NCBI GenBank assembly: GCA_963827665.1
Contig: CAWHBQ010000006.1
Coordinates: 191,953-255,952 of the forward strand
Reading direction: 5' to 3'
Origin: an uncultured Oscillospiraceae bacterium
GTDB lineage: Bacteria > Bacillota > Clostridia > Saccharofermentanales > UBA5734
Length of the DNA: 64,000 nucleotides
The position numbers were made by a program, and so were the translations under genes. Numbering within the stretch: position 1 is the first letter of the stretch; every line of letters starts with the position of its first letter. Positions 51,260-63,942 of this stretch are shown here, in pieces. Below the pieces are notes generated by a model. That model saw nothing but the letters and a program-made list of their open reading frames with translations. It made no database searches and was not told the origin of the DNA.

Positions 51260-51356
51260 TGGCAACAACTCGAAGCGGTCGTATAATTATACGGTATTGA
51301 CGCGTGCAATCCGTCTATCGATCTCATAATTATGCAGATATGATGCATAAAAATAT
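51260..51356 (+). promoter_or_regulatory. argG control region: candidate promoter (TTGGCA -16- TATAAT), perfect 14-bp palindrome CGTATAATTATACG over the -10, and an ARG-box-like TGCATAAAAATATT
   Basis: Elements read directly. The ARG-box call rests on similarity to the AhrC/ArgR consensus TGAATAAAAATTCA. Confidence 0.4.
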
Positions 51357-51369
51357 TGGAGGTACAATC

Positions 51370-52584
51370 ATGGCTAAAGAAAAAATCCTGCTGGCTTATT
51401 CCGGCGGCCTCGACACATCGATTATCATCCCGTGGTTGCTTGAACATTATGACTGCGAAGTCATCGCCATGGCTGGTGAAGTTGGTATCGGCCTCGATCA
51501 TGAAGCACTCAAGGCCAAGGCGCTCAAATGCGGTGCGTCTGCTTGCTTCATCGAAGATATCGCTGAAGAATTCATCACCGATTACGTTTATCCGACCATG
51601 AAAGCCGGCGCGATCTACGAAGGCAAATACCTGCTGGGCACCTCGTTTGCCCGTCCGGCCATCGCCAAGCGGATGGTCGAGATCGCCAAGCGCGAAGGCT
51701 GCACCGCCGTCGCCCATGGCGCAACCGGCAAAGGCAACGACCAGGTCCGCTTTGAGCTTTCTGTCAAGGCCCTCGCGCCTGAACTCAAGATCATCGCACC
51801 CTGGCGCCTGTGGGACATCACGTCCCGCGACCAGGAAATCGATTATGCCAACGCCCGGAACATCCCGGTTCCGGTCACCAAAGCGGACAACTACTCGATG
51901 GACCAGAACCTCTGGCACCTCAGCCACGAGGGCATGGACCTCGAGGATCCGAACAACGAACCACTCTATGACAAAATTCTCCAGATGACCGTCACCCCTG
52001 AAAAAGCACCGGACAAAGCCACCTATGTCACACTTGATTTCGAACAGGGTATCCCTGTCCGCGTCGATGGCCAGGCCCTCAGCCCGGTCGAAATGCTCAA
52101 GTACCTGAACAAAGTCGGTGGAGAAAACGGGATCGGCATTGTCGACATGGTCGAGAACCGCCTCGTCGGCATGAAGTGCCGCGGCGTCTATGAAACACCG
52201 GGCGGCACCCTGATGTACCTGGCCCACCGCGAGCTTGAACTGCTCTGCCTTGACCGTGACACGATGCATTACAAAGATGTCCTGGCCCAGCGCTACGCTG
52301 AGCTCGTCTACTTCGGCCAGTGGTTCCACCCGCTGCGCGAAGCCCTGGATGCCTTCGTCAACGAAACCCAGAAAACTGTCACCGGCACCGTCAAGCTCAA
52401 ACTCTACAAAGGCAACGCCACCTCGGCCGGCGCGACCTCGCCGTTCTCCCTCTATGACGAAGCGCTTTCGACATTCGCCGAAGACACCGTGTATAATCAT
52501 GCAGAAGCTGGCGGTTTTATCAATTGCTTCGGGCTGCCGCTGAAAGTTGTCGCGGGCATGAAGAAACGCAACAATCTGCTCTGA
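51370..52584 (+). CDS. argG: Argininosuccinate synthase
   Basis: [11 protein letters not shown]-loop, 404 aa. RBS GGAGG. The antisense 493-aa ORF on the minus strand is spurious. Confidence 0.95.
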
Positions 52585-52638
52585 TTCCCACTCGAATCCC
52601 ACTTCCAGGATCACAGAAAGTAACTTCACAAAACAAAA

Positions 52639-52678
52639 AAGAAACACTGAGGTTTTATACCTTAAGTGTTTCTTTTTT
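52639..52678. terminator. Bidirectional rho-independent terminator between argG (+) and fbp (-)
   Basis: aagaaacact ... agtgtttctt flanked by A-run and T-run. Confidence 0.8.
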
Positions 52679-52745
52679 CGCTTAGTGTGTTCGTGTGGCC
52701 AGGACAACGCCTGACCTGACCCAGGTTAGTGTTTTCCGCGGATCT

Positions 52746-54743
52746 TTAACTGTTGTTACTCACTTTGGGGATCCACAGTGCCTGCAGGTTTGGCACGTGT
52801 TCCGGATTTTCTTCGACCTCGCCGTCGCGAAAGGCTTGCAGCAGCGCTTTGAGTTCACTGATGCGCTGGTTGACGATCTCGCCTTCGTCGGTGTCGGCGA
52901 TCAGCATCCGCCGCGGCATGTTTTCGACAATCCGGACTTTCGGCGTCAAGTCAAGCGGGCGCAGCTTTTCATCGACATGGTAGGGCAAGTGTTCAGCCAA
53001 AGCCAGATAGCGTGAATTGTAGATCAGTGTGTAACCACCGATGCCTGTGTGGCTCTGGTAAGCTTTGGAAATCCCGCCATCGATGACGTAAAGCAGGCCG
53101 CCGCCTTTGACCGGGCTTTCCCCCGCCTTGATCTTGACCGGGACATGGCCATTGATGATGTGCGACCGTGCTGGGTCGAGTCCGAATTCGCGCAGGATGT
53201 TTTCGCACATGCTGCGCTCCTCCAGCATCTGGTAGTAGGGACTCATGACTTCCTTGTGAGTCGCCTTGTCGGCAACGAAATACCGTTCGAAAGTGGCCAT
53301 TTTGTTCTTGCCGAACAGCGGTGATTTTGGACCGCACCAGAGGTACCAGAGAAAATCGCGGGCATCGTATTTTTCCTGCGAATGCGGGGGCGCGAAATGC
53401 GCGAGGCGGACGATCTTGTCAATGTGATCGAGATAGGATTTGCCGGAATAGACCTGCCCATTAAAAGTGACCTTGTCAAAGCTGCCATCGGCGGTCATCG
53501 GGATGCAGCCGTGGTACAGCAGGTTGTTATTGGCACAGAGGTACATGCTGCCCTGGGCATAGAGAAAACGGATGTGCTTCTGCAGTTTCTCGCTGTGCCT
53601 GAACGATGCGGCGATCGAGTTCATCAGATCTTCTTCACCCGGGGTGAGCTTTAAGGGGTCGTTCGGGTCAACCGTTGGGAAAAGCTTGTCCTTAAGCTCG
53701 TGGACATGTCCATTCAGCGTGATCGTGCCATCTTCGAAATTGATCTTCTCGAGCAGGCGGCGGTCGTCCATACCGTATTCCGGATGTCGTTTGAGCAACT
53801 GCCCTTCGACCTTGAACTGGATGATGGCGATTGCCTTGTGCATTTTGGCAGCCAGGACGGAATCGACCGGATCGTATATGTTCTCATCGAGAATGTGCGG
53901 GGCAAAAAGGGCGCAGGGGTCATCGTGGTAAACCTGGGCGGCAAACACCGACAAAGCTCGCAGGTTGATCCCGTAGCCGTCTTCCATCGAATCGAAATTG
54001 TTATAGCTGATGCCTAGCCGGATTACACTGGCGATGCAGACCCAGTTGCCGGCTTGCGCTCCCATCCAGGAAATATCATGGTTACCCCATTGGAAATCGA
54101 CCTGTTTGAAGTCGATCAACGCACTGATAATGGCATCGGCCCGCGGCCCGCGGTCGAAAATGTCGCCAATGACGTGGATTTTGTCGATGGCCAGACGCTG
54201 GATCAGCAGGCACAGGCTGGTGATGAATTCCTCCGTCATCCCGGAGTCGACAATCGACTGGACACTGGCAGCGAAATACTGGGCTTTGCTGTCGGAATCG
54301 ACATGGAGAAGTTCGTCGATGATATTGGCGAAATGGGGTGGCAGTTTGCGCCTGACCTTGAACCGGGTGTATTTGGCCGAAACGATTTTGCAGACTTCAA
54401 GCAACCGGTAAATCGTGATCTTGCACCAGTCGAACGTCAACTGTTCAGATGCACTCATGAGTTCCAGTTCCCGTTCGGGATAGGCGATCAAATTGGCCAG
54501 CGCGATGCGGTCGGCCTGGGAAACCGATTTTTCGAAAAGGTCATCGATTTTGGTGCGGATGAACCCCGATGCGCTGCGCAGCAAATGAATAAATGCCTCA
54601 TGCTCGCCATGCAAATCACTGAAGAAAAACTCAGTGCCCTTGGGGAGTCCCAGGAAAGCTTCCAGACGGATGATTTCCGCTGCGGCCGCCTGGGTTGTGG
54701 GATATTCACGGGATAATAACTTGAGATAATGCTGATCGACCAT
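52746..54743 (-). CDS. fbp: Fructose-1,6-bisphosphatase class 3 (Firmicutes-type Fbp)
   Basis: N-terminal LPKGTEFFFSDLHGEHEAF metallophosphatase block and a length of 665 aa typical of class III FBPase. Confidence 0.9.
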   Translation of the reverse strand: MVDQHYLKLLSREYPTTQAAAAEIIRLEAFLGLPKGTEFFFSDLHGEHEAFIHLLRSASGFIRTKIDDLFEKSVSQADRIALANLIAYPERELELMSASEQLTFDWCKITIYRLLEVCKIVSAKYTRFKVRRKLPPHFANIIDELLHVDSDSKAQYFAASVQSIVDSGMTEEFITSLCLLIQRLAIDKIHVIGDIFDRGPRADAIISALIDFKQVDFQWGNHDISWMGAQAGNWVCIASVIRLGISYNNFDSMEDGYGINLRALSVFAAQVYHDDPCALFAPHILDENIYDPVDSVLAAKMHKAIAIIQFKVEGQLLKRHPEYGMDDRRLLEKINFEDGTITLNGHVHELKDKLFPTVDPNDPLKLTPGEEDLMNSIAASFRHSEKLQKHIRFLYAQGSMYLCANNNLLYHGCIPMTADGSFDKVTFNGQVYSGKSYLDHIDKIVRLAHFAPPHSQEKYDARDFLWYLWCGPKSPLFGKNKMATFERYFVADKATHKEVMSPYYQMLEERSMCENILREFGLDPARSHIINGHVPVKIKAGESPVKGGGLLYVIDGGISKAYQSHTGIGGYTLIYNSRYLALAEHLPYHVDEKLRPLDLTPKVRIVENMPRRMLIADTDEGEIVNQRISELKALLQAFRDGEVEENPEHVPNLQALWIPKVSNNS

Positions 54744-54745
54744 AA

Positions 54746-55174
54746 TCAGGCTTTTTTCAGCAAGTCGCGGATCTCTTCGAGCAAAGCGATGTCGGCAGGC
54801 TTGGCTGGGGGTGCAACGGCCTCGGCCTCCTTGACCTTGCGGGCATCGGCGCGTTCACGCATATGGTTGATGCCTTTGACGATCAGGAAAACAAAGAGGG
54901 CGATAATCAGGAACTGGATGGTCACCTGGATCAGCTTGCCATAGGTGATGGCGACTTCAGGTTTGGTCACTTCACCATTGGTCATCACCGCATTGGCGAG
55001 GACATATTTGAGATCGGAAAAACTTATTCCTGCAGTGATGAAGCCGATGATCGGCATAATGATGTCATTGACAACGCTGCTCACGATCGCTCCGAAAGCA
55101 GCGCCGATCACAACACCAATGGCCAGGTCCATGACATTGCCACGCAGGATGAATTTCTTGAATTCTTGCAACAT
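54746..55174 (-). CDS. mscL: Large-conductance mechanosensitive channel
   Basis: MLQEFKKFILRGNVMDLAIGVVIGAAFGAIVSS canonical MscL N-terminus. RBS AGGAGG. 142 aa. Confidence 0.95.
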   Translation of the reverse strand: MLQEFKKFILRGNVMDLAIGVVIGAAFGAIVSSVVNDIIMPIIGFITAGISFSDLKYVLANAVMTNGEVTKPEVAITYGKLIQVTIQFLIIALFVFLIVKGINHMRERADARKVKEAEAVAPPAKPADIALLEEIRDLLKKA

Positions 55175-55404
55175 GATTGATAGCCTCCTTTTTTGCCGTG
55201 ACAGATCAGCCGGTGTCCGGCTGGCCGTCCTGGCATGCATGATGAAAATGATGTCATTGGTTAGATTGTACTAATTATAAGTCTAGTTAGAAATAAATGA
55301 CAATGTCCGGACAGATCTAAGCCGTTCTGTGCTAACATGATGATAGAGAGCGCCCTCAATCCCTTGCTATATGAGGGCGAAGCAATCGCACAAAAAGGAG
55401 CGTG

Positions 55405-55626
55405 ATGTCAATGCCAGACAGTGTCTACAAAGTGATCGAACTGGTTGGAACCAGCACAGAATCCTGGGAAAAGGCGGCAGCCAATGCCATTGAAGTTGCT
55501 TCGAAAAAAATCAAAGACCTGAGGATCGCCGAAGTGATCCTGATGGACGCCCAAATTGAGGATGGCAAGATCCACCTGTACCGCACGAAAATGAAACTTT
55601 CATTCAAATACCACGCGGATGACTGA
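55405..55626 (+). CDS. Dodecin-family flavin-binding protein
   Basis: 74 aa. VYKVIELVGTSTESWEKAAANAIEVASKKIKDLRIAEV matches dodecin. Confidence 0.85.
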   Translation: MSMPDSVYKVIELVGTSTESWEKAAANAIEVASKKIKDLRIAEVILMDAQIEDGKIHLYRTKMKLSFKYHADD

Positions 55627-55833
55627 TCTTTACTAGCTCAACAGAACCAGTCAAACATATAACTATAATCAACAGAAGCCATCAGCCTTGATGCTATGTA
55701 TCGCCGAAATTCTTGCATTATTTATCCGGATTTTGGGGCGCATAATAAAGCGAACAAATCGCATCGAGGCTGGTGGTTGTTTTCTGATTTTCATCGGTTC
55801 CTACAGTAGGACAGCGTGACTGGAGGAGATATC

Positions 55834-58623
55834 ATGGATTTTGGAAAGACCAGGGACCGCAGTGATGCACTCCACCAGCCGTCTCAACAGCACCAGAAAT
55901 CAGCGCATGATCCCGGAAAATCTCCTCATCAAACCGGACAGCCCGGTGAAAACCCCAAACTTCCGGAAACAACATTCGGGCTGCTAAAGCTCGTTTTTAC
56001 CAGTGCTTTCAAGCATCTGCCGAAAATGATTGCCAGCATGGCCATCAAGGGCATACTGTCTTTCACCTTGGCTTTTGTGATCAATTTTTATGTCATTGCA
56101 GTCAAAAACAACGGCCTGGGCATGTCGCTGCCAAAAGAAAGTCCCTGGTATCCACTGTTAAATATCGGTGAAAACCAGGCTGCCTTCTCGGCGCTCTGCT
56201 TCCTGGCTTTTTTCATTCTGACGTCCTTGTTTGACCGGATCCGGGACCGCGGACTCAAACGGTTCCTGCTGGATCTGGTTGGAATCCCATCCTGGACGGC
56301 TCAAGCCGTGCGCGAAACCGGCCGGCTCTCGGTTCCGGTCCTGGCGATAGCCGCCGGGATGAGCCTTTTCCTGAGTCTCGTCGTCGAAAACAGGTATCTG
56401 TTTATTTCGCTGGCCTTCGGCATATTGATGGGCTATTCAGCCCGCCATGCTGACTTCAGCCTGATTTTTGCCCAAACGATCTGGTCCGATACCCGGAAAT
56501 TGTTCGGCCGTCAAAAACAGAAAAAGGAAGCCCCGGTCGGTGCGATGGCCCTCTTCATGCTGGGCCTGGCGATCGGCCTCGTGCTTCTGGTATTCATCCC
56601 GAAACAGCCGGTGCTGCCGGTCCTTGCCGGCATTGTCCTGATAGCCCTGGGCATTCTGGCCGCCAAACGGAAAGTAGCCCCCAGGGCTGCTATTTTCATT
56701 TTTGGCCTGGTGATCACCAGTTCAATCCTGTCGGGAATATCGAGCAGTGTCTATGCCGATGACGGAGGCTGGTGGGAAGGCGGTGCTGACTGGTGGACCT
56801 GGATCAGGAGCCCCGGCGCCTGGGCGGTGATCCGGAACGGCTTCAGGACAGGTCTTCTGGCCACAGCCGGCAGTATCATCGGCAGCCTGTTCAACGTAGG
56901 ATGCCGGGTAATTTCGAGCGCCGTGACTGGAGCGTACAACGTCGCCTCCCGTGGCGCTTCGGCAGTCTATGACACGTTGAAAAACGCCAGTGACCGAGTG
57001 GCGGAGGGTGTTTCACAGGCCAGCGATGCTGTCGCGGAAGGCCTCCGCACAGTCAGCAGCGGCCTTGGCTATACCTATGATGTGGTGACCGGAACAATAG
57101 CCGGCACAGTTGGCCAAGTCATCGACACAGCAGGATATGTGCTCGACCGCGGTTGGGAAGAAATCAAAGAGACCGCGTCAGGTTTCAAGGATGGAGTCTT
57201 CCAGCTTCTCGCCGATCCAGAGTTGTGGGACAGCTGGTTTGATAACATGTATGCCGATGTAACCCAGATGGAAAGTTCGCTCGGCGATTTCGCCGGCTCA
57301 GTCTGGGAAACCGCCTCAGGGTACGCGGACTGGCAAATCGTTAAAGACGGCCTGGGTGGAACACTGGACGACATCGGCTATGGCTTGTCCACTTCGGCCG
57401 GATGGATCAGGGACGAAGCCGTCAGCTACTGGAACACTCCGGATGCTTTCTGGGACCGGGCCTATGAAAACGTGACAACAGGCGTTGAAACAGCCGGCAA
57501 TGTCCTCGCCAATACCTGGAATGCGGTGTCCAATACGGTCAATGATCCGGAAAAGGTCTACCAGACCGTCAAAGACATGATCGGGGCGGACAATTTCAGC
57601 AACAGCTGGGATCCGAACCGCTCCGGCTGGGATCGGATCGGTCAATCATTGTGGGGAACATTTGAATTGGGTGGTACCCTATCCACCATCAAAGAAGCCG
57701 GTATGGGGCTGACCCGTTATGCGGACGACCTGGTCGGACAGGCTGCCGATGACGCCGCCAGGGAACTTGCCGAGTTGAATGCCCGAGGTTTGGCCGACGA
57801 TGGCGCCAGAGCCCTTGGCGACAAGGGATTGTTCATCCACGTCCAGAATGTCGATCCAAATTTCATCCCGGGCAATACCAAGAGGACACTTAGCGATCTC
57901 GCAAGGGAACTCAATGTCCAGATTCAAGTCCGAATCGGCAATGCGGATTCGGTCAAATGGTTTGATGAAGGTCTTGGTGTGCCCAAACCACTTGACCTGA
58001 AATTCAAGACAATCAACAAGTGGGATGAAATGCTCGGCTGTCCGACCGGCTCACGCGGCGTGGTCGGCTGTTACAATCCCAGTCTGCCGGCGAACTTCAA
58101 ATCATTGCCGATTTCCGATCAGACAAAACTCCTGGCCAGATTCGATGACCGGGTCAAGGAAATGGCAAGGTATAGCTCGGATATGAACCGGATGATGCAG
58201 GAAGGTCGCTACAGCATCGTCAACAACATGGTCTATGACGTCAAAGCCCAGAAATTTGTCGCAGGCGATGTCGATTTGTACCATATCACCCAGGCTGATG
58301 GAACACCCTTGCCGGACAGCATGATCAGGCAGATTGAAAACCGGCTGATGGGCAACCCGGATACCACGGTCCTGCACCGAAGCTGTTCACAGCAGGGACT
58401 TTCCGCGGACGTATTTGATCCGCACTTGCAGGATAAATATATCCGCGGCGGCACGACCACGGGCGAAGGCGTGATCAGTATCAATGCGGATGGCAGTATC
58501 ACCCAAGCTTATTCCCGACATGATTTCTACCAGCGGCCCGCCCCCAGGAATCCCTGGGCCGAAGCCTATGGAACGACCCAGACTGTCAAAACCGGGCTTT
58601 CGGCAGACGCAGTGCAGCAATAA
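55834..58623 (+). CDS. Large uncharacterised polytopic membrane protein (about 930 aa)
   Basis: About 6 TM segments in residues 60-310, then a ~600-aa Gly/Trp/Asp/Thr/Ala-rich soluble region (YADDGGWWEGGADWWTWI...). RBS GGAGGAG upstream of ATG 55834. No known catalytic motif recognised. Confidence 0.55.
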   Translation: MDFGKTRDRSDALHQPSQQHQKSAHDPGKSPHQTGQPGENPKLPETTFGLLKLVFTSAFKHLPKMIASMAIKGILSFTLAFVINFYVIAVKNNGLGMSLPKESPWYPLLNIGENQAAFSALCFLAFFILTSLFDRIRDRGLKRFLLDLVGIPSWTAQAVRETGRLSVPVLAIAAGMSLFLSLVVENRYLFISLAFGILMGYSARHADFSLIFAQTIWSDTRKLFGRQKQKKEAPVGAMALFMLGLAIGLVLLVFIPKQPVLPVLAGIVLIALGILAAKRKVAPRAAIFIFGLVITSSILSGISSSVYADDGGWWEGGADWWTWIRSPGAWAVIRNGFRTGLLATAGSIIGSLFNVGCRVISSAVTGAYNVASRGASAVYDTLKNASDRVAEGVSQASDAVAEGLRTVSSGLGYTYDVVTGTIAGTVGQVIDTAGYVLDRGWEEIKETASGFKDGVFQLLADPELWDSWFDNMYADVTQMESSLGDFAGSVWETASGYADWQIVKDGLGGTLDDIGYGLSTSAGWIRDEAVSYWNTPDAFWDRAYENVTTGVETAGNVLANTWNAVSNTVNDPEKVYQTVKDMIGADNFSNSWDPNRSGWDRIGQSLWGTFELGGTLSTIKEAGMGLTRYADDLVGQAADDAARELAELNARGLADDGARALGDKGLFIHVQNVDPNFIPGNTKRTLSDLARELNVQIQVRIGNADSVKWFDEGLGVPKPLDLKFKTINKWDEMLGCPTGSRGVVGCYNPSLPANFKSLPISDQTKLLARFDDRVKEMARYSSDMNRMMQEGRYSIVNNMVYDVKAQKFVAGDVDLYHITQADGTPLPDSMIRQIENRLMGNPDTTVLHRSCSQQGLSADVFDPHLQDKYIRGGTTTGEGVISINADGSITQAYSRHDFYQRPAPRNPWAEAYGTTQTVKTGLSADAVQQ

Positions 58624-58653
58624 CCGGTGGACATCGAGCGAGGAGGGATACCG

Positions 58654-59532
58654 TTGGAAAATACTGTCAGCAAGAGGAATCAGATCCTGCAGGATTATTT
58701 CGAGGCTCAAGCCAGCCGGAACCGCTTGCTTGCGGAATTGTCCAGATCAGGCCAGGACTCGGAAAATATCCGTGCCAAACTGGATCTTGTGAGCAATCTG
58801 ATTTTCGACCTTTCCGAATCGTACCTGTCCAACCTTCCGGTACTTTCAATCTCCAGATGCCCATACACCGGGCAACTGGTCCATTACACCGTTGACACAT
58901 ACGGCCTGGGTGGGCCTTGGTGGGATTACCTGGATCCAGTGCGGAAATCAATCCAGGCGCCAGCCACCTTCTTTGCTGTCGACGGTGCGATGAAAATCAC
59001 TGCCAGTCCGGAAACTGCACCGTTCCTGGTGATTCCAGGACCGGATCAGCCGTTTGTGATTCCAGGATTGCTGCAAAGGCGGGAAATCAAAGCCGTCATT
59101 TCCTCGATGAAAATCGCCGGCAACCTGACTTGGTGGATCGTCTATTATGCTTTCCCGATGATCAACGATGTCCAGTCTATCAATGATTACGGGACCAACC
59201 AATATTCTTTCGTCAATCTCTATGGCCACCGGCTTTATGAATCTGCCTTCAATCCGGAATCAGCCTATGACTATTCCCTGGAGAAATGGATCCGTCAAGG
59301 CAAACTGCTGTGGATCGCGCCAGACGACGAAACGTTCAAACTCCAGGCGGTTGCTGCTGAATGTCCATACCTCGGCATTGCCGGCAGTGGCCATGTTCAG
59401 ATTATCCGCAGCGGCAAGATCTCTTATCTCCGAGATGTGAAAATGGAAATCCCGGAAGCAGACGATGCGATGAAACAGGTGGCTAAGGCAGCGATCCAGC
59501 AGATCAATAGCAGGGGTGATCATCATGAATGA
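58654..59532 (+). CDS. Hypothetical protein (about 292 aa), co-transcribed with the large membrane protein
   Basis: Probable TTG start with strong SD GAGGAGGG 6 nt upstream. The track GTG start at 58627 lacks an SD. Confidence 0.45.
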   Translation: MENTVSKRNQILQDYFEAQASRNRLLAELSRSGQDSENIRAKLDLVSNLIFDLSESYLSNLPVLSISRCPYTGQLVHYTVDTYGLGGPWWDYLDPVRKSIQAPATFFAVDGAMKITASPETAPFLVIPGPDQPFVIPGLLQRREIKAVISSMKIAGNLTWWIVYYAFPMINDVQSINDYGTNQYSFVNLYGHRLYESAFNPESAYDYSLEKWIRQGKLLWIAPDDETFKLQAVAAECPYLGIAGSGHVQIIRSGKISYLRDVKMEIPEADDAMKQVAKAAIQQINSRGDHHE

Positions 59533-59794
59533 AGGTGTTCGGAATATCCAGTTGTCGTTTGAAGACCTCGCGTTTGTCATCAGGGATTCCGCTTTAGTGA
59601 TCGACGATTTTAGCCCGTTAGCCCAGGACGCGGTGATGCAGCTGATCGACCCGTATGGCAAATCGGCCGATCAGCGAGCAGGCCAGAGCAGCGGTCCGGA
59701 TCAACAGGAAATCGCCGAGCCTGGTCAGGAAAATCACCCATCCGCAGATGAAAATGATCTGCCGTTTTGGTGGCGGCAAGATGCCGGCAGCTGA
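59525..59794 (+). CDS. Small acidic hypothetical protein (89 aa)
   Basis: ATG with GGGGTG SD. Overlaps the upstream gene by 8 nt and the downstream gene by 14 nt. Confidence 0.4.
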   Translation: MNEGVRNIQLSFEDLAFVIRDSALVIDDFSPLAQDAVMQLIDPYGKSADQRAGQSSGPDQQEIAEPGQENHPSADENDLPFWWRQDAGS

Positions 59795-60707
59795 ACAGAC
59801 CCTCTGCTTCGATGCAGCCAATGGTGAAAATCCGGTTGGCATTTCATTCTTGAATGATCGCGTCAAGCTTTTTGCGTACGACGGTTTGAAGTCGATTCTT
59901 GACGGCTTCATAGCCAAATATGCGAGCAAAAACGAGGGTGTTACGCCTAATTTGATCCCGCCAATGATTTCGCTGGAATCATTTGTTGCGGTCCTTCATA
60001 GTATCGACATGTACCGGCGTTCACTCTACGCCAGTCTACTCCGGTACGAGCCGCAAAGTGAACCCGGTTTTACGCTCGACGCTTACTCGGCCGAGTTGGT
60101 CAAGGCTCTTAAATCCAGGGATATCCGCTGGCTGACCCCTTGTTTTGTCAACATTGTGCCCAACCTGCCGGCTGATCAGTTCAAATTCGATCCGGACAGC
60201 CTGAAATTCCTTGTTGACAGCGGGCTCTGCAAAATGATGAAACATAAGGAAACGAACCAGTTGGGCATGGCTTTCACAGAAGAAGGCAAAGCTCTTGGGG
60301 TTGAATTTGAGCGAACCTGGCAGACCAGCACCGGGTTCGAACTGAGTTTGAAAACCAGCACCGGCAGCAAGGTCCTGGAAAAAGGATTTCTGGCCCCAAC
60401 TGCAGCGGCCAATCATCTTGTTTTGTTGAAAGAAAGCGAGGCGGGTATCCAAGTCAACCACCAGGCATTCCAGTCAGACCAATTGCGGGCCTGGCTGAAC
60501 GGTCTTTTCGCAGCACCAAGTCCAGCACCAATACCAGCACCAAGTCCAGCATCAATACCAGCACCAAGTCCAGCACCAATAGCAGATCCAGGGCCAGTGC
60601 CAAGTCCAGCACCAGCATCTGAGCCCAAACTGAGGATCTGTGTCAATTGCGGCAACAAATTGGATGCAACTGTAAAATTCTGCACCAGATGCGGCGCGAA
60701 AAATTGA
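59781..60707 (+). CDS. Hypothetical protein with Pro-rich linker (APSPAPIPAPSPASIPAPSPAP) and C-terminal zinc-ribbon (CVNCGNKLDATVKFCTRCGAKN)
   Basis: Two Cys pairs form a classic Zn-ribbon. PAPS repeats precede it. Start chosen at MPAAEQ. Confidence 0.5.
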   Translation: MPAAEQTLCFDAANGENPVGISFLNDRVKLFAYDGLKSILDGFIAKYASKNEGVTPNLIPPMISLESFVAVLHSIDMYRRSLYASLLRYEPQSEPGFTLDAYSAELVKALKSRDIRWLTPCFVNIVPNLPADQFKFDPDSLKFLVDSGLCKMMKHKETNQLGMAFTEEGKALGVEFERTWQTSTGFELSLKTSTGSKVLEKGFLAPTAAANHLVLLKESEAGIQVNHQAFQSDQLRAWLNGLFAAPSPAPIPAPSPASIPAPSPAPIADPGPVPSPAPASEPKLRICVNCGNKLDATVKFCTRCGAKN

Positions 60708-60708
60708 A

Positions 60709-61755
60709 ATGAATCGGTCGAATGCTTTGAAATCCTGGAAATCAAAAACCTTTGCCCTTGCCCTGGGACTATTGTCCATGCTCCTTTTATCCGCATGTCG
60801 TGCATCAGGTGATACCGTGATCATCTACACGTCAGTCGACCGGAATTTCTCCGAGCAGGTTTTCCAGGATTTTGAAAAGAAGACAGGGATCAGGGTCATC
60901 GCCGGCTATGACACCGAAGCCAGCAAAACCACCGGCATGGTCAACAAACTCGTCGAGGAAGCATCAAACCCGAGGGCCGATGTGTTCTGGAGCAGTGAAT
61001 TTTCCCAGACGATTTTACTCAAAGACAAGGGCATTCTGGCTCCCTACCAGTCGAAAAGTGCAGCCAGTATCCCGAACAAATTCAAGGACCCCGCTGGTTA
61101 TTGGACTGCATTTGGTGGACGGGCCAGATGTATCCTGGTCAACACAAAACTCCTGAACAAGGAAGACTATCCCAGCAAGTTTGAAGATTTCCTGTCTGAC
61201 CGTTATCCGGCGGACAAAATCGGTATGGCCTACCCGCTTTTCGGAACCACGGCTACACACGCTGCCGCACTTTATGCTGTGGAAGGCAGCCAGGTCGCCG
61301 AGGCGTTTTTCAAAAAACTCCAGTCACGTGGCATCCGGATTGTCGATGGCAATGGCGTTGTCAGGGATCTTGTCGTCGATGGTCAACTGCTATTTGGCAT
61401 GACCGATACCGATGATGCCCTAGGCGCCATCGAGAAGGGTGCTTCGGTCGATATCGTCTTCCCTGACCAGGGCGAAGGCGAAATCGGAACCCTGATCATA
61501 CCCAACAGTGTCGCCTTGATTAAAAAACCTGAACAGAATGAGAAGGCCAGGATTTTCATCGACTATTTGCTCAGTGAAGCGACGGAACAATACCTGTTTG
61601 ATCTTGGCTGGATCCAGGCCCCGGTGCGGACAATCGAAGCCACTACATCGGGTATCAACTTGAACCAGATCAAGATGATCGACATTTCACTCGATGAGAT
61701 TTATGTGAAGCTTGCAGGCTCGCAGGATTCACTCAAGCAGATTTTTATCCGATGA
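60709..61755 (+). CDS. ABC transporter substrate-binding lipoprotein (iron(III)/FbpA-AfuA-like, family 1 SBP)
   Basis: Lipoprotein signal ...LLLSAC. SBP fold with an FbpA-like conserved pair of Tyr (see YLFDLGW). 348 aa. Confidence 0.75.
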   Translation: MNRSNALKSWKSKTFALALGLLSMLLLSACRASGDTVIIYTSVDRNFSEQVFQDFEKKTGIRVIAGYDTEASKTTGMVNKLVEEASNPRADVFWSSEFSQTILLKDKGILAPYQSKSAASIPNKFKDPAGYWTAFGGRARCILVNTKLLNKEDYPSKFEDFLSDRYPADKIGMAYPLFGTTATHAAALYAVEGSQVAEAFFKKLQSRGIRIVDGNGVVRDLVVDGQLLFGMTDTDDALGAIEKGASVDIVFPDQGEGEIGTLIIPNSVALIKKPEQNEKARIFIDYLLSEATEQYLFDLGWIQAPVRTIEATTSGINLNQIKMIDISLDEIYVKLAGSQDSLKQIFIR

Positions 61756-63302
61756 AAATCCCCTCGCGTTTGTTCCAGCTCCTGGCCACCTGGCCCTTTT
61801 TCCTGATCGGCGTTATGCCTGTCCTGCTGCTGCTATTTCGCAGTCTTGTCGATTGGCTGGCACAGGAAAATGGCCGTGCTTTTCCTTTCGACCTGCAGCG
61901 GGAGACCCTGTTGCTGGCGAAAACGATTGCCTATTCCGGCACAGTGGCGATGACGGTGACTGCAGTGGGCGTCCTGGCTGCGGTTTTCACCTGCGGCAGC
62001 GGCAAGAAGATTTTCCAGCGTTATGCATGGCTGTTGTTCATGACGCTGCCTGTTCCGGCCTGCGTCCATTCCCTGGCCTGGCTGAGATGGAACGGAGTAT
62101 TGAACAACACAGGATGGCTCGTGGTATCTTCACGAGGCTGGCTGATGGCCTGGTTTGTCCAGAGTTTGGCGCTGTTGCCGGTTGCGGTGCTGATCATCGC
62201 TGGCGGTGTCCTTGCCATCAACAAAGAACAGATTTTTGCCGCGCAGCTGCTAGGCAATGACACCCGGTTTTTAGTGAGTCTGCTGCCCAGATACCTGAAA
62301 CCGCAGATTCTGGCAACGTTGGCCATTGTTTTCATGCTGACGATCAACGACTATGCCATTCCTTCGGTATTTTCAGTCAATGTCTATGCTCTGGACATTT
62401 TTGTGGAGTACAGCAGCAGTTTGAGCGTGTTGCGGACAATACTCAAGAGCCTGCCATTGACATTGATCCAGGCTGCGGTTCTGCTGGCAATCCTCGGACT
62501 GATCTCTGAAGTGTTCTTGTCCGGCCGAAAGCAAGACGCTAATGATGTGGCGTTGACATTTCCCAAATCAGTCCAGGTCATTTCATCCCTGGCGTTGATC
62601 CTGGTCCTGGTCCAGATGCTTGGCCTAGTCAGCGTTATTCTGCTTGACCGGAACATGTGGCAGGAACTTGGCAGCACTTTGATCAGCACTTCTGCCGATT
62701 TGGCGACAAGCCTGTCAATCTCTGCAATAACCCTGATCCTCGGCATTCCAGTTATCTACACCACGGCAAGCTGGCTCAACCAAACCCGGTTCAGGAAAGC
62801 CGGTCTTTTCCTGGTCATTTTACCTACTGTACTGCCGGCTTCCCTGATCGGAGCAGCCTATATCAATCTGTTCAATCATCCTGCAACGAACTGGATCTAC
62901 AACAGTGCCCTAATGCCAGGTCTGGCTGTTTTGGCGAGGTTCATGCCTTTTGGTGTGCTTGTCACCCTGGCCTGGATCAAGCGGATGGATCAGAATCTGG
63001 TCAACGCAGCCTTGCTGGTGGAAGGTCGTGAGTGGCGGAATGCTTTACGGATCAAGCTGCCGATGATTTCGGCCGGGCTGCTGATTGGCTCGGCCTTGAT
63101 CGTCCTGTTCGGCATCGGCGAGTTGGGGGCTACTATCCTTGTTTTGCCGCCAGGGATGTCGACTGTTACCGTGAGGCTGTACAATTATCTGCATTATGGT
63201 GCTACCGAAATGGTTCTCGGACTGTCGTTCATGATCCTCGCCGTCATTGTTATCCTGGCTGGTCTTGCCAAAATCCTGACAAGGGGAAGATTCAATGATT
63301 GA
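61752..63302 (+). CDS. ABC transporter permease, duplicated-domain type (FbpB/AfuB-like)
   Basis: 516 aa, 12 TM, two BPD_transp_1 modules. ATGA overlap with the SBP gene. Confidence 0.8.
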   Translation: MKIPSRLFQLLATWPFFLIGVMPVLLLLFRSLVDWLAQENGRAFPFDLQRETLLLAKTIAYSGTVAMTVTAVGVLAAVFTCGSGKKIFQRYAWLLFMTLPVPACVHSLAWLRWNGVLNNTGWLVVSSRGWLMAWFVQSLALLPVAVLIIAGGVLAINKEQIFAAQLLGNDTRFLVSLLPRYLKPQILATLAIVFMLTINDYAIPSVFSVNVYALDIFVEYSSSLSVLRTILKSLPLTLIQAAVLLAILGLISEVFLSGRKQDANDVALTFPKSVQVISSLALILVLVQMLGLVSVILLDRNMWQELGSTLISTSADLATSLSISAITLILGIPVIYTTASWLNQTRFRKAGLFLVILPTVLPASLIGAAYINLFNHPATNWIYNSALMPGLAVLARFMPFGVLVTLAWIKRMDQNLVNAALLVEGREWRNALRIKLPMISAGLLIGSALIVLFGIGELGATILVLPPGMSTVTVRLYNYLHYGATEMVLGLSFMILAVIVILAGLAKILTRGRFND

Positions 63303-63942
63303 ACTGAACAGTGTCGTCAAGAGTTTCGGCTCTTTAGCCATACTGGAGCAATTCTCGCATACCTTTGCTTCAGGCAGCAAAACAGCAGTGACCGGGCCTT
63401 CCGGGATCGGCAAGACAACCTTGCTGAATGTCATTGCAGGACTTGTGCCAATCAGTGCCGGCCTGATCAAGATCGATGGTACAGTCACAGACACACCTAC
63501 GGCCAGGGTGCATCCGTCAAGAAGGAATCTTGGATTCGCCTTCCAGTTCCCTTCTCTCTGGCCACACATGTCCGTTCGGGACAATATCCTGTATGGTCTG
63601 GCTGGATTCAATCCCCAGGAAAGAGAAAAACGCTTCGATACGATCATTGAATCTCTTGTCATAAAAGACTTGATCAGGAAATACCCGGGAGAGCTTTCAG
63701 GTGGCCAGGCCAAACGGGTAGCCCTGGCCCGGACGATGGTTGTCAAACCCAGGCACCTCCTGCTCGATGAGCCGCTGAACAATCTCGACTGTGAATTGAA
63801 GGACAGGATCCTCGAAGCCGTCATGGATTATGCGAAGGAGAACACCAGTACGGTCATTTTCGTCACCCATGACCCGGCTGAGGCCGAAGATGTGTGTGAT
63901 GTTGTCTGCCGTTTTTCAAGTCATGGAATGACACGGGTCTGA
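63295..63942 (+). CDS. ABC transporter ATP-binding protein
   Basis: Walker A GPSGIGKTT, signature LSGGQAKRVALARTM, Walker B LLLDEPL. Confidence 0.9.
   Translation: MIELNSVVKSFGSLAILEQFSHTFASGSKTAVTGPSGIGKTTLLNVIAGLVPISAGLIKIDGTVTDTPTARVHPSRRNLGFAFQFPSLWPHMSVRDNILYGLAGFNPQEREKRFDTIIESLVIKDLIRKYPGELSGGQAKRVALARTMVVKPRHLLLDEPLNNLDCELKDRILEAVMDYAKENTSTVIFVTHDPAEAEDVCDVVCRFSSHGMTRV

Follow-up and report, generated by a model that had tools for sequence, protein, structure and literature searches.

We analysed a 64,000-nt stretch of DNA from an uncultured Oscillospiraceae bacterium (hereafter the window; all coordinates are positions within it) and found on its forward strand, between 55834 and 60707, a gene cluster whose first product almost certainly carries a class II nucleotidyl cyclase domain, of the type found in the toxins EF, CyaA and ExoY. 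This product is a membrane protein of 929 aa (55834..58623), with the cyclase domain close to its C-terminal end. It is followed by the gene of a DUF8367 (PF28040) protein (58654..59532) and by that of a protein with a C-terminal zinc ribbon (59655..60707; the Zn-ribbon protein). Our preferred reading, which is tentative and which we rate a little below even, is that the three genes form a conflict-type module, in which the cyclase domain would be a toxin and the DUF8367 protein its neutraliser, with delivery to neighbouring cells as the preferred mode of action. The original prediction, made from the sequence without database searches, had described four uncharacterised genes reminiscent of polymorphic-toxin/immunity or surface-appendage systems. 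Homologous loci are denoted here L0xx and database proteins P0xxx.

The cyclase domain occupies residues ~660/675–895 of the large protein (57856..58518, + strand) and ends 34 residues before the stop. Among 5.8 billion sequences searched, only three clusters of orthologues of the large protein were found, all from Clostridia metagenome-assembled genomes (MAGs) and at 35–36 % identity. In the orthologue alignment, the C-terminus was the best-conserved soluble part, with the motifs PKPxxxKxKTxNKxDE...G..VG..P and GDVDxYxIT. The first matches to known proteins were weak: in PDB the entry 7p1h, which is an ExoY-like module of a Vibrio MARTX protein (E 0.15), and in Pfam the Anthrax_toxA family, matched by a single orthologue (E 0.031). 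When the C-terminal profile was searched exhaustively with HMMER, 737 cluster representatives were obtained at E≤1e-3, 484 of them at E≤1e-10. Two members of this cyclase family, P0148 and P0155, scored above the Anthrax_toxA gathering score, which was exceeded at 35.1 and 30.1 bits. The relatives passing it lie within proteins that have N-termini of a WXG100-like type and a GH-E nuclease toxin domain, and such N-termini are restricted to cyclase family members other than the window's family. The cyclase family profile was built from 33 sequences, with that of the window first. Its top 14 matches in PDB were all class II cyclase toxins, with E-values of 3.3e-6 for Vn-ExoY, 8.5e-6 for CyaA, 2e-4 for EF and 0.064 for ExoY.

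The columns invariant in all 33 sequences were R700, K718, K725, D731, G735, G742, P749, R773, D812, D814 and H848, of which R700, K718, K725, D812, D814 and H848 are the predicted catalytic residues. Motif I, PKPLDLKFKT, holds K718 and K725, seven residues apart, and aligns to SKGLFVKAKS in Vn-ExoY and TKGLGVHAKS in CyaA. The D-x-D motif is formed by D812 and D814 within GDVDLYHI and is likewise invariant; in this second aligned segment, the profile reads TGDvDifdi against TADIDMFAI in CyaA and TADYDLLTV in Vn-ExoY. The conserved phosphate- or metal-binding residues have been given as R329, K346/K353 and D491/D493 in EF, and as R64, K81/K88 and D212/D214 in ExoY (PMC9223806). All the Arg, Lys and Asp residues named there are kept in the window protein, with the same spacing of seven residues between the lysines. 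As judged by its sequence, we assign the C-terminal domain to the EF/CyaA/ExoY superfamily with high confidence, and it is quite probably catalytically competent. The original prediction had found no enzymatic motif in the cluster, whereas the catalytic motifs of class II cyclases are present. It had also singled out the last ~250 aa of the large protein as a distinct and possibly variable module. This part is indeed a distinct module, and one of a bona fide toxin family, but among orthologues it is not polymorphic; it is conserved and its catalytic residues are invariant. A conserved C-terminus with a housekeeping role had been named as an outcome that would speak against a toxin. The C-terminus is conserved; its assignment, however, is to a family of toxins.

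The association of the cyclase with DUF8367 was found to be very strict. A genome scan seeded with DUF8367 gave 42 loci, which were searched by six-frame local hidden Markov model (HMM) scans. They come from Firmicutes, Delta- and Alphaproteobacteria, Acidobacteria, Verrucomicrobia, Nitrospirae, Caldiserica, Cyanobacteria and Dormiibacterota, and four are from Bathyarchaeia. The hosts of DUF8367-linked cyclases are free-living anaerobes and archaea, not animal pathogens. A cyclase-domain protein adjoins DUF8367 on the same strand in 41 of the 42 loci, and it lies upstream in all of these except L028, which has the two genes in the opposite order. In the 42nd locus, L040, a divergent cyclase copy was recognised by eye (KPNDIGAKS ... 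FRADMDTV). The Zn-ribbon protein follows DUF8367 at E<1e-30 in 23 loci and weakly in ~8 more. The converse fails: in a metagenome sample seeded with the giant-toxin-type cyclase domain, DUF8367 follows in 4 of 17 loci (with the cyclase domain at or next to the C-terminus in three of these and ~290 residues before the stop in the other one), and it is absent from several giant-toxin-type loci that have enough flanking sequence. The cyclase/DUF8367 pair is constant, and it is the N-terminal module that varies between lineages. The expectation that the cluster is a conserved unit held up, as its genes occur together in all relatives identified. That these cyclases would depend on a eukaryotic cofactor (calmodulin or actin) is made less likely by their obligate prokaryotic partner and by their origin from environmental or archaeal hosts.

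At least 374 homologues of the DUF8367 protein were found. PF28040 is assigned to P0010 and 119 further listed homologues by precomputed annotation; the Pfam set scanned here is without that model, and an annotated homologue was unmatched in it. An AlphaFold2 model from a deep alignment has a predicted local distance difference test (pLDDT) score of 94.2 and consists of an N-terminal helical hairpin and a beta-rich core, for which no solved structural relative was found. D81, R97 and D225 are invariant in the family, and C69, H157 and N177 are present in ≥90 % of sequences. DUF8367 has no signal peptide. A fusion to Imm35, an immunity domain of polymorphic-toxin systems, was found in one DUF8367 protein, and L040 and L049 each have two DUF8367 copies. 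Together with the adjacency in 41 of 42 loci, this fusion and the tandem copies bear out the suggestion that the downstream gene is a cognate partner. At L040:2640-5432, a 406-aa Pro-rich protein lies between the two DUF8367 genes, and at L054:1858-2169 a further fragment of the cyclase domain is found directly behind the DUF8367 gene. By analogy, these two layouts resemble the orphan-cassette or poly-immunity arrangements of toxin loci.

In other loci, DUF8367 itself is directly fused to zinc ribbons, to TPR repeats or to DnaN clamp domains. At L024:9971-11770, from a Rhizobiaceae MAG, DUF8367 is joined to a zinc ribbon and to domains 2 and 3 of the DNA polymerase III beta-clamp (Pfam E 8.6e-19 and 9.5e-10), which stand in place of the usual Zn-ribbon protein. 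This fusion might hint at the target of the module or at mimicry. Kinship of the Zn-ribbon protein with these clamp domains was ruled out (hhalign probability 0.2 %). One relative bears a D5_N primase-like region.

The N-terminal part of the large protein is a polytopic membrane module with seven strongly hydrophobic helices in a Kyte-Doolittle scan (residues 66–304; 56029..56745, + strand). The window-type module was also found by an N-terminal HMM in loci of Bathyarchaeia, Caldiserica and Nitrospirae, and by eye, from the ADDGG-type motif after the last helix, in Dormiibacterota, one alphaproteobacterium and Fimbriimonadia. No Pfam family, PrsW included, matched the window protein or 15 N-terminal modules at E≤1. 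The conserved residues also lack His and a Glu-Glu helix motif, and an identity with PrsW was ruled out. A word-indexed homologue search with the N-terminal module gave zero matches, probably because it was swamped by hydrophobic words. The helices are followed by an acidic loop, (V/L)xADDGGWxExGG...SPG, and a Gly-zipper, GVxPGLLGxxGSLLGS (residues 305–358; 56746..56907, + strand), where A308, G311, G312, E315, G317, G336 and G346 are nearly invariant (alignment A7). The (V/L)xADDGGWxExGG part (residues 305–322, nt 56746–56800) is kept from Firmicutes to Bathyarchaeia, Dormiibacterota and Alphaproteobacteria. The loop could be a processing site, a metal site or a gate.

Between the Gly-zipper and the cyclase domain lies a helical-repeat linker rich in Gly, Ala, Asp, Thr and Trp (residues ~359–674; 56908..57855, + strand), recognised by its composition. 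Residues 305–650 contain 12.4 % G, 11.6 % A, 9.0 % D, 7.8 % T and 5.2 % W, with an isoelectric point of 4.1. This agrees with the soluble region described earlier as rich in Trp, Gly, Asp, Thr and Ala, and the string YADDGGWWEGGADWWTWI quoted for it is found in the sequence. The middle region of the protein (residues ~346–620, nt 56870–57700) contains ~33-aa repeats (NDPxxIxDTxKG...) and gave weak matches to phage tape-measure proteins (PHROGs, E 2e-5) and alpha-synuclein, and a related protein with the same membrane module (L035:2514-5108) matched apolipoprotein (E 3e-4). These similarities may be a compositional effect or may reflect a membrane-interacting helical array. The C-terminal half of the linker is common to the otherwise different 1225–1258-aa proteins of Desulfitibacter and Phosphitispora.

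Three N-terminal types were seen among the DUF8367-linked cyclase proteins: a module with seven or eight transmembrane (TM) helices; a signal peptide with a 250–550-aa ectodomain and one TM helix; and giants of 1700–2078 aa in Syntrophomonas. In 15 family members of the first type, the mean numbers of K+R were 6.7, 5.5, 5.1 and 2.2 in loops 0, 2, 4 and 6, and 1.2, 0, 0.4 and 1.9 in loops 1, 3, 5 and 7, respectively, and this alternation places the N-terminus inside. After seven helices, the ADDGGWxExGG loop would fall outside the cell. The Gly-zipper segment (residues 338–358) is a possible eighth membrane helix, though its mean hydropathy is only 0.66 and its insertion is uncertain. The bitopic relatives have a RPKALPSKSQVK-type K/R cluster after the TM helix, which indicates that their cyclase domain lies in the cytoplasm of the producer. 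A cytoplasmic cyclase domain is the only topology that would fit both classes, and it requires the reading with eight TM helices.

The same membrane module was also found without the cyclase. At L034:115-2130, in a Mageeibacillus MAG, it has an ADDSGWSESG loop and an unrelated C-terminus of ~500 aa, and this paralogue is followed by a membrane-anchored Reg_prop beta-propeller protein (L034:2127-3206). Further cyclase-less copies are at L035:2514-5108 and L029:3958-5688. In Desulfitibacter and Phosphitispora (L007:5067-6212 and L009:3320-6309), two to five paralogous open reading frames (ORFs) of ~183–210 aa precede the cyclase gene, none of which had a Pfam match; in Desulfitibacter, a C39-peptidase ABC exporter pair lies further upstream.

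If the three genes form a toxin module, the large protein would be anchored in the membrane by its polytopic N-terminal module, which may also bring about its export or processing. Once in a prokaryotic target cell, the cyclase would turn nucleoside triphosphates (NTPs) into cyclic nucleoside monophosphates (cNMPs) and pyrophosphate in an unregulated manner, and the outcome would be NTP depletion and cNMP flooding. The cytoplasmic DUF8367 protein would bind the cyclase domain and keep the producer's copy inactive, as an immunity protein or antitoxin, and the Zn-ribbon protein would be an accessory factor. Delivery to neighbouring cells is proposed by analogy with PrsW-type polymorphic toxins and is the weakest step. 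As a proposal, a dedicated partner would be needed here and not in EF, CyaA and ExoY, because those are inert without a eukaryotic cofactor. At the level of sequence, the Imm35 fusion, the tandem DUF8367 copies, the cyclase fragment of L054 and the lack of a signal peptide favour an immunity role for DUF8367. The occurrence of the cyclase/DUF8367 cassette on varying N-terminal modules, together with fast evolution, likewise appears to speak for a conflict module.

The likeness to polymorphic toxins that had been proposed stood in part: a toxin-family C-terminus is present with a cognate partner, but what varies between lineages is the N-terminal module. A polymorphic C-terminus was rejected for the orthologues, as all of them share the same conserved domain; different C-termini on the same module were found in the paralogues L034, L035 and L029.

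Several results weigh against this toxin-and-neutraliser reading, the uniformity of the C-terminal domain among orthologues being one of them. The window's large protein alone had no Pfam match at E≤1, and the structural model was of low confidence (pLDDT 49.7). No trafficking or processing domain (type V, VI or VII secretion system, Rhs, PrsW or MuF) was found by Pfam in the window protein or the 15 modules. A cytoplasmic cyclase, as predicted in the bitopic relatives, would fit a receptor-like enzyme better than an exported toxin, and in the window protein the side of the cyclase domain hangs on the uncertain eighth helix. With its many invariant polar residues, DUF8367 could be an enzyme or effector and not simply an inhibitor. 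The strictly conserved third gene is unusual for toxin–immunity pairs. No DUF8367 was found in viral contigs, phage records or plasmid records, and PADLOC gave no defence-system match other than one at chance level (E 0.047). As for known routes of delivery into eukaryotic host cells, neither a type III secretion signal nor RTX/type I secretion, protective antigen (PA)-binding or MARTX delivery domains were found in the window protein by Pfam or NCBIfam.

The same components might instead act within the producing cell, as a defence or toxin–antitoxin module. A cytoplasmic cyclase restrained by DUF8367 would then be freed when the N-terminal module senses envelope damage or phage attack, and growth arrest or death (abortive infection) would follow. 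We consider this rather unlikely, although much of the topology is in line with it: the cyclase is predicted to lie inside in the bitopic relatives, and likewise in the eight-TM reading of the window protein, and the partners are all cytoplasmic. It is typical of immune sensors to join variable sensor modules to an enzymatic output and a partner that stay constant; the fast evolution of the module and the D5_N primase-like region in one relative also point this way. On the other hand, no PADLOC defence model matched and the module is absent from the viral, phage and plasmid collections. The same domain family also occurs in secreted-type giant toxins and WXG100-type toxins. Nor are the window neighbours those of a defence island. 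Upstream, at 51304–55626, are argininosuccinate synthase ArgG (+ strand), class 3 fructose-1,6-bisphosphatase (− strand), MscL (− strand) and dodecin (+ strand), and downstream is an ATP-binding cassette (ABC) importer. The left flank of homologous loci differs, with a leucine-rich repeat protein and GGDEF/EAL proteins.

Another unlikely account is signal transduction, in which the large protein would be a receptor-type membrane cyclase making a cNMP messenger on an extracellular cue, served by DUF8367 and the Zn-ribbon protein as its dedicated activator, receptor or effector; a tie of this pathway to the downstream importer and a beta-propeller protein is possible in the window's lineage. Class III cyclases, GGDEF proteins and histidine kinases have architectures similar to the 7/8-TM and bitopic ones seen here, and the many invariant polar residues of DUF8367 would suit such a role. 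The importer is encoded at 60709..63942 (+ strand) by genes for a lipoprotein binding protein (60709–61755), a 516-aa double permease (61752–63302) and an ATPase (63295–63942). Only 1 nt separates the Zn-ribbon gene from it, and a consensus-only scan predicted no intrinsic terminator at this or any other junction from 55834 to 63942; terminator-like sites occur within coding sequences only, at about the number found in shuffled sequence. All close relatives have the importer, a Reg_prop propeller protein and a small Zn-ribbon protein behind the module, and a Reg_prop protein likewise comes after the L034 paralogue, in which the membrane module is the same but the C-terminus another.

The importer link is missing in the distant relatives Desulfitibacter and Phosphitispora, however, and where it is present it is explained by shared ancestry. 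Identity to L001 (importer at L001:5133-8382) is 71 % for the binding protein and 48 % for the permease, and this level implies fairly recent common ancestry for the synteny; for the three module proteins it is only 33–38 %. On sequence comparison, the module is evolving much faster than its neighbours. The importer is probably not part of the module and is a conserved neighbour in the closest clade only. The binding protein matched best the 2-aminoethylphosphonate PhnS type in NCBIfam, at 114.6 bits and far below the cut-off of 310, and the earlier label of an Fe(III)-type importer found no specific support. A functional tie to an Fe(III) importer was rejected, on the PhnS-like binding protein and on the loss of the link in distant relatives. 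Signalling is further opposed by the record of the superfamily, since all characterised members of the class II cyclases are toxins and none has a housekeeping role (PMC9223806). No known cNMP-binding domain was found in the cluster by Pfam or NCBIfam, immunity is favoured by the Imm35 fusion and by the DUF8367 copies in tandem, and signalling output domains are not normally bound to one fixed partner gene in 42 of 42 loci.

A more far-reaching idea, which we hold to be improbable, is that DUF8367 is no inhibitor and that, alone or jointly with the Zn-ribbon protein, it takes in prokaryotes the place of calmodulin or actin. It would be the cognate activator or effector of a membrane-sensor class II cyclase in a self-contained immune or stress second-messenger pathway of bacteria and archaea. 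Such a pathway would use a cyclase class known to date only from eukaryote-activated toxins, and would also be the evolutionary source of EF, CyaA and ExoY.

A non-enzymatic structural protein of the surface or envelope (an appendage or adhesin) with unrelated small ORFs downstream is very improbable: Gly/Ala/Thr-rich helical repeats, the weak tape-measure matches, the apolipoprotein match of a related protein and a naive seven-TM topology with the C-terminal 620 residues outside would suit it, but 33 diverse sequences show no variation in the cyclase catalytic residues, linkage of the downstream genes is strict in many phyla and no adhesin, pilin, sortase or S-layer signature was found by Pfam or NCBIfam. 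The surface-appendage suggestion found no support.

The gene models of the cluster were revised as follows. The large gene, whose product is identical to the public protein P0001, starts at ATG 55834, 6 nt behind a Shine-Dalgarno sequence GGAGGA (55822..55827, + strand) read from the sequence; this is the membrane protein reported before, with a length of 929 aa and not 930. For the DUF8367 gene, the maximal ORF starts at GTG 58627. The start is most likely TTG 58654, which lies 31 nt past the cyclase gene and 6 nt behind the Shine-Dalgarno sequence GAGGAGGG and gives a protein of 292 aa. A TTG start and a length of ~290 aa had already been proposed. A public contig of 670 kb encodes P0010, which also has 292 aa and matches the 301-aa query with 100 % identity over 97 % of its length.

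The remaining two ORFs, an 89-aa ORF (59525..59794, + strand) and one of 308 aa, appear to belong to a single gene. The overlaps of 8 nt (59525–59532) and 14 nt (59781–59794) reported among the last three ORFs are there. Related loci carry three genes, however, and not four; at the position of the 89-aa and 308-aa ORFs, close relatives have a single protein of 379–405 aa that starts exactly where the 89-aa ORF starts and abuts the DUF8367 stop. An HMM of the homologues from outside the window matched the frame of the last ORF at profile positions 56–385 (E 1.4e-81), from ~nt 59691. This is 90 nt upstream of the ATG at 59781 chosen earlier, which indicates that the 308-aa model is too short; from ATG 59655 the Zn-ribbon protein has 350 aa (59655..60707, + strand). 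The first ~36 residues of the 89-aa ORF align with the N-termini of the homologues in MAFFT, at a similarity that is not significant by HMM (E 0.27). The frame of the Zn-ribbon protein is +1 relative to that of the 89-aa ORF, and the probable break falls between about 59645 and 59670; no obvious homopolymer or slippery site was found at 59640–59670. From these alignments, the two ORFs are rather probably one gene split by a frameshift or sequencing error. It may stem from an error in sequencing or mark a real pseudogene; recoding is less likely. The 89-aa ORF most likely consists of ~43 genuine N-terminal codons, probably the 5′ part of the Zn-ribbon gene, followed by out-of-frame read-through. 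An independent 89-aa acidic protein, as had been listed, was rejected, since homologues have one longer gene in its place.

The Pro/Ala-rich linker and the Cys4 zinc ribbon predicted for the last protein were both confirmed; only its start had been placed too far downstream. The ribbon is C-terminal, after a Pro/Ala/Ser-rich linker (60639..60704, + strand), and was identified by Pfam Zn_Ribbon_1 (E 1e-6, 28.8 bits against a cut-off of 25). It was the sole match in single-sequence scans of the four ORFs with Pfam, NCBIfam and PADLOC. C329, C332, C343 and C346 are invariant (alignment A8). Beyond the ribbon itself, no Pfam, PDB or PHROG relative of the protein was found.

Class II nucleotidyl cyclases are textbook virulence factors, regarded as restricted to a small number of pathogens and as inactive before contact with calmodulin or actin within the eukaryotic cell. 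In this work, the class II catalytic domain was found with its residues intact in hundreds of sequence clusters from free-living anaerobes and archaea. Its fusion to a membrane module, its dedicated partner and its prokaryotic hosts imply that this clade acts within prokaryotic cells or against them. Should this be true, it would be the evolutionary context from which EF, CyaA and ExoY arose, and a new type of interbacterial toxin or immune cyclase would be predicted. It would also give DUF8367 and the uncharacterised Zn-ribbon family a first testable function, as neutraliser or cofactor of a cyclase. Full-text searches of the literature found no description of DUF8367 and no class II cyclase directed at, or regulated by, prokaryotic proteins, and a class II cyclase domain is unmentioned in the 2012 survey of polymorphic toxins (PMC3482391). 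The novelty lies in the setting of a known toxin fold, whose architecture, partner family and hosts are new.

Compared with the EF, CyaA, ExoY and MARTX toxins (PF03497, Anthrax_toxA), the window protein has the same Arg, the same Lys pair seven residues apart, the D-x-D motif and the conserved His, and in both the domain serves as one module of a larger multi-domain protein. However, the window domain is C-terminal on a polytopic membrane protein and not delivered by type III or type I secretion or by PA, it falls below Pfam detection when the protein is taken alone, and its hosts are free-living anaerobes and archaea. The known class II cyclase toxins have no immunity protein, since they need calmodulin or actin (PMC9223806), whereas the window-type cyclase is paired with a prokaryotic partner, DUF8367.

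Polymorphic toxin–immunity systems share with this module a C-terminal toxin-family domain on a large protein, with a small cytoplasmic partner gene directly downstream, and the Imm35 fusion of one DUF8367 and the tandem partner copies are further likenesses. In PrsW-type polymorphic toxins, an 8-TM N-terminal module is fused to a C-terminal toxin, which it has been proposed to extrude (Zhang et al. 2012, PMC3482391). A polytopic N-terminal module and a toxin–partner cassette on different N-terminal modules are found here too, but the window module is without PrsW motifs or a Pfam match. Other differences from polymorphic toxins are that the DUF8367-linked members lack T5, T6 or T7 secretion or Rhs trafficking domains, that the C-terminus is constant among orthologues, that there is a third conserved gene, and that the predicted topology may hold the toxin domain inside the producer.

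The cyclic-nucleotide anti-phage systems Pycsar and CBASS resemble the module in being compact operons of a nucleotide cyclase and one or more partner proteins, and a logic in which cyclase output leads to growth arrest is possible in both. In contrast to these systems, the module has no PADLOC match and no recognisable cNMP-binding effector (TIR, TM effector, nuclease or phospholipase); its cyclase is of the class II fold, not class III-like or a CD-NTase, and it is the cyclase itself that bears the membrane module.

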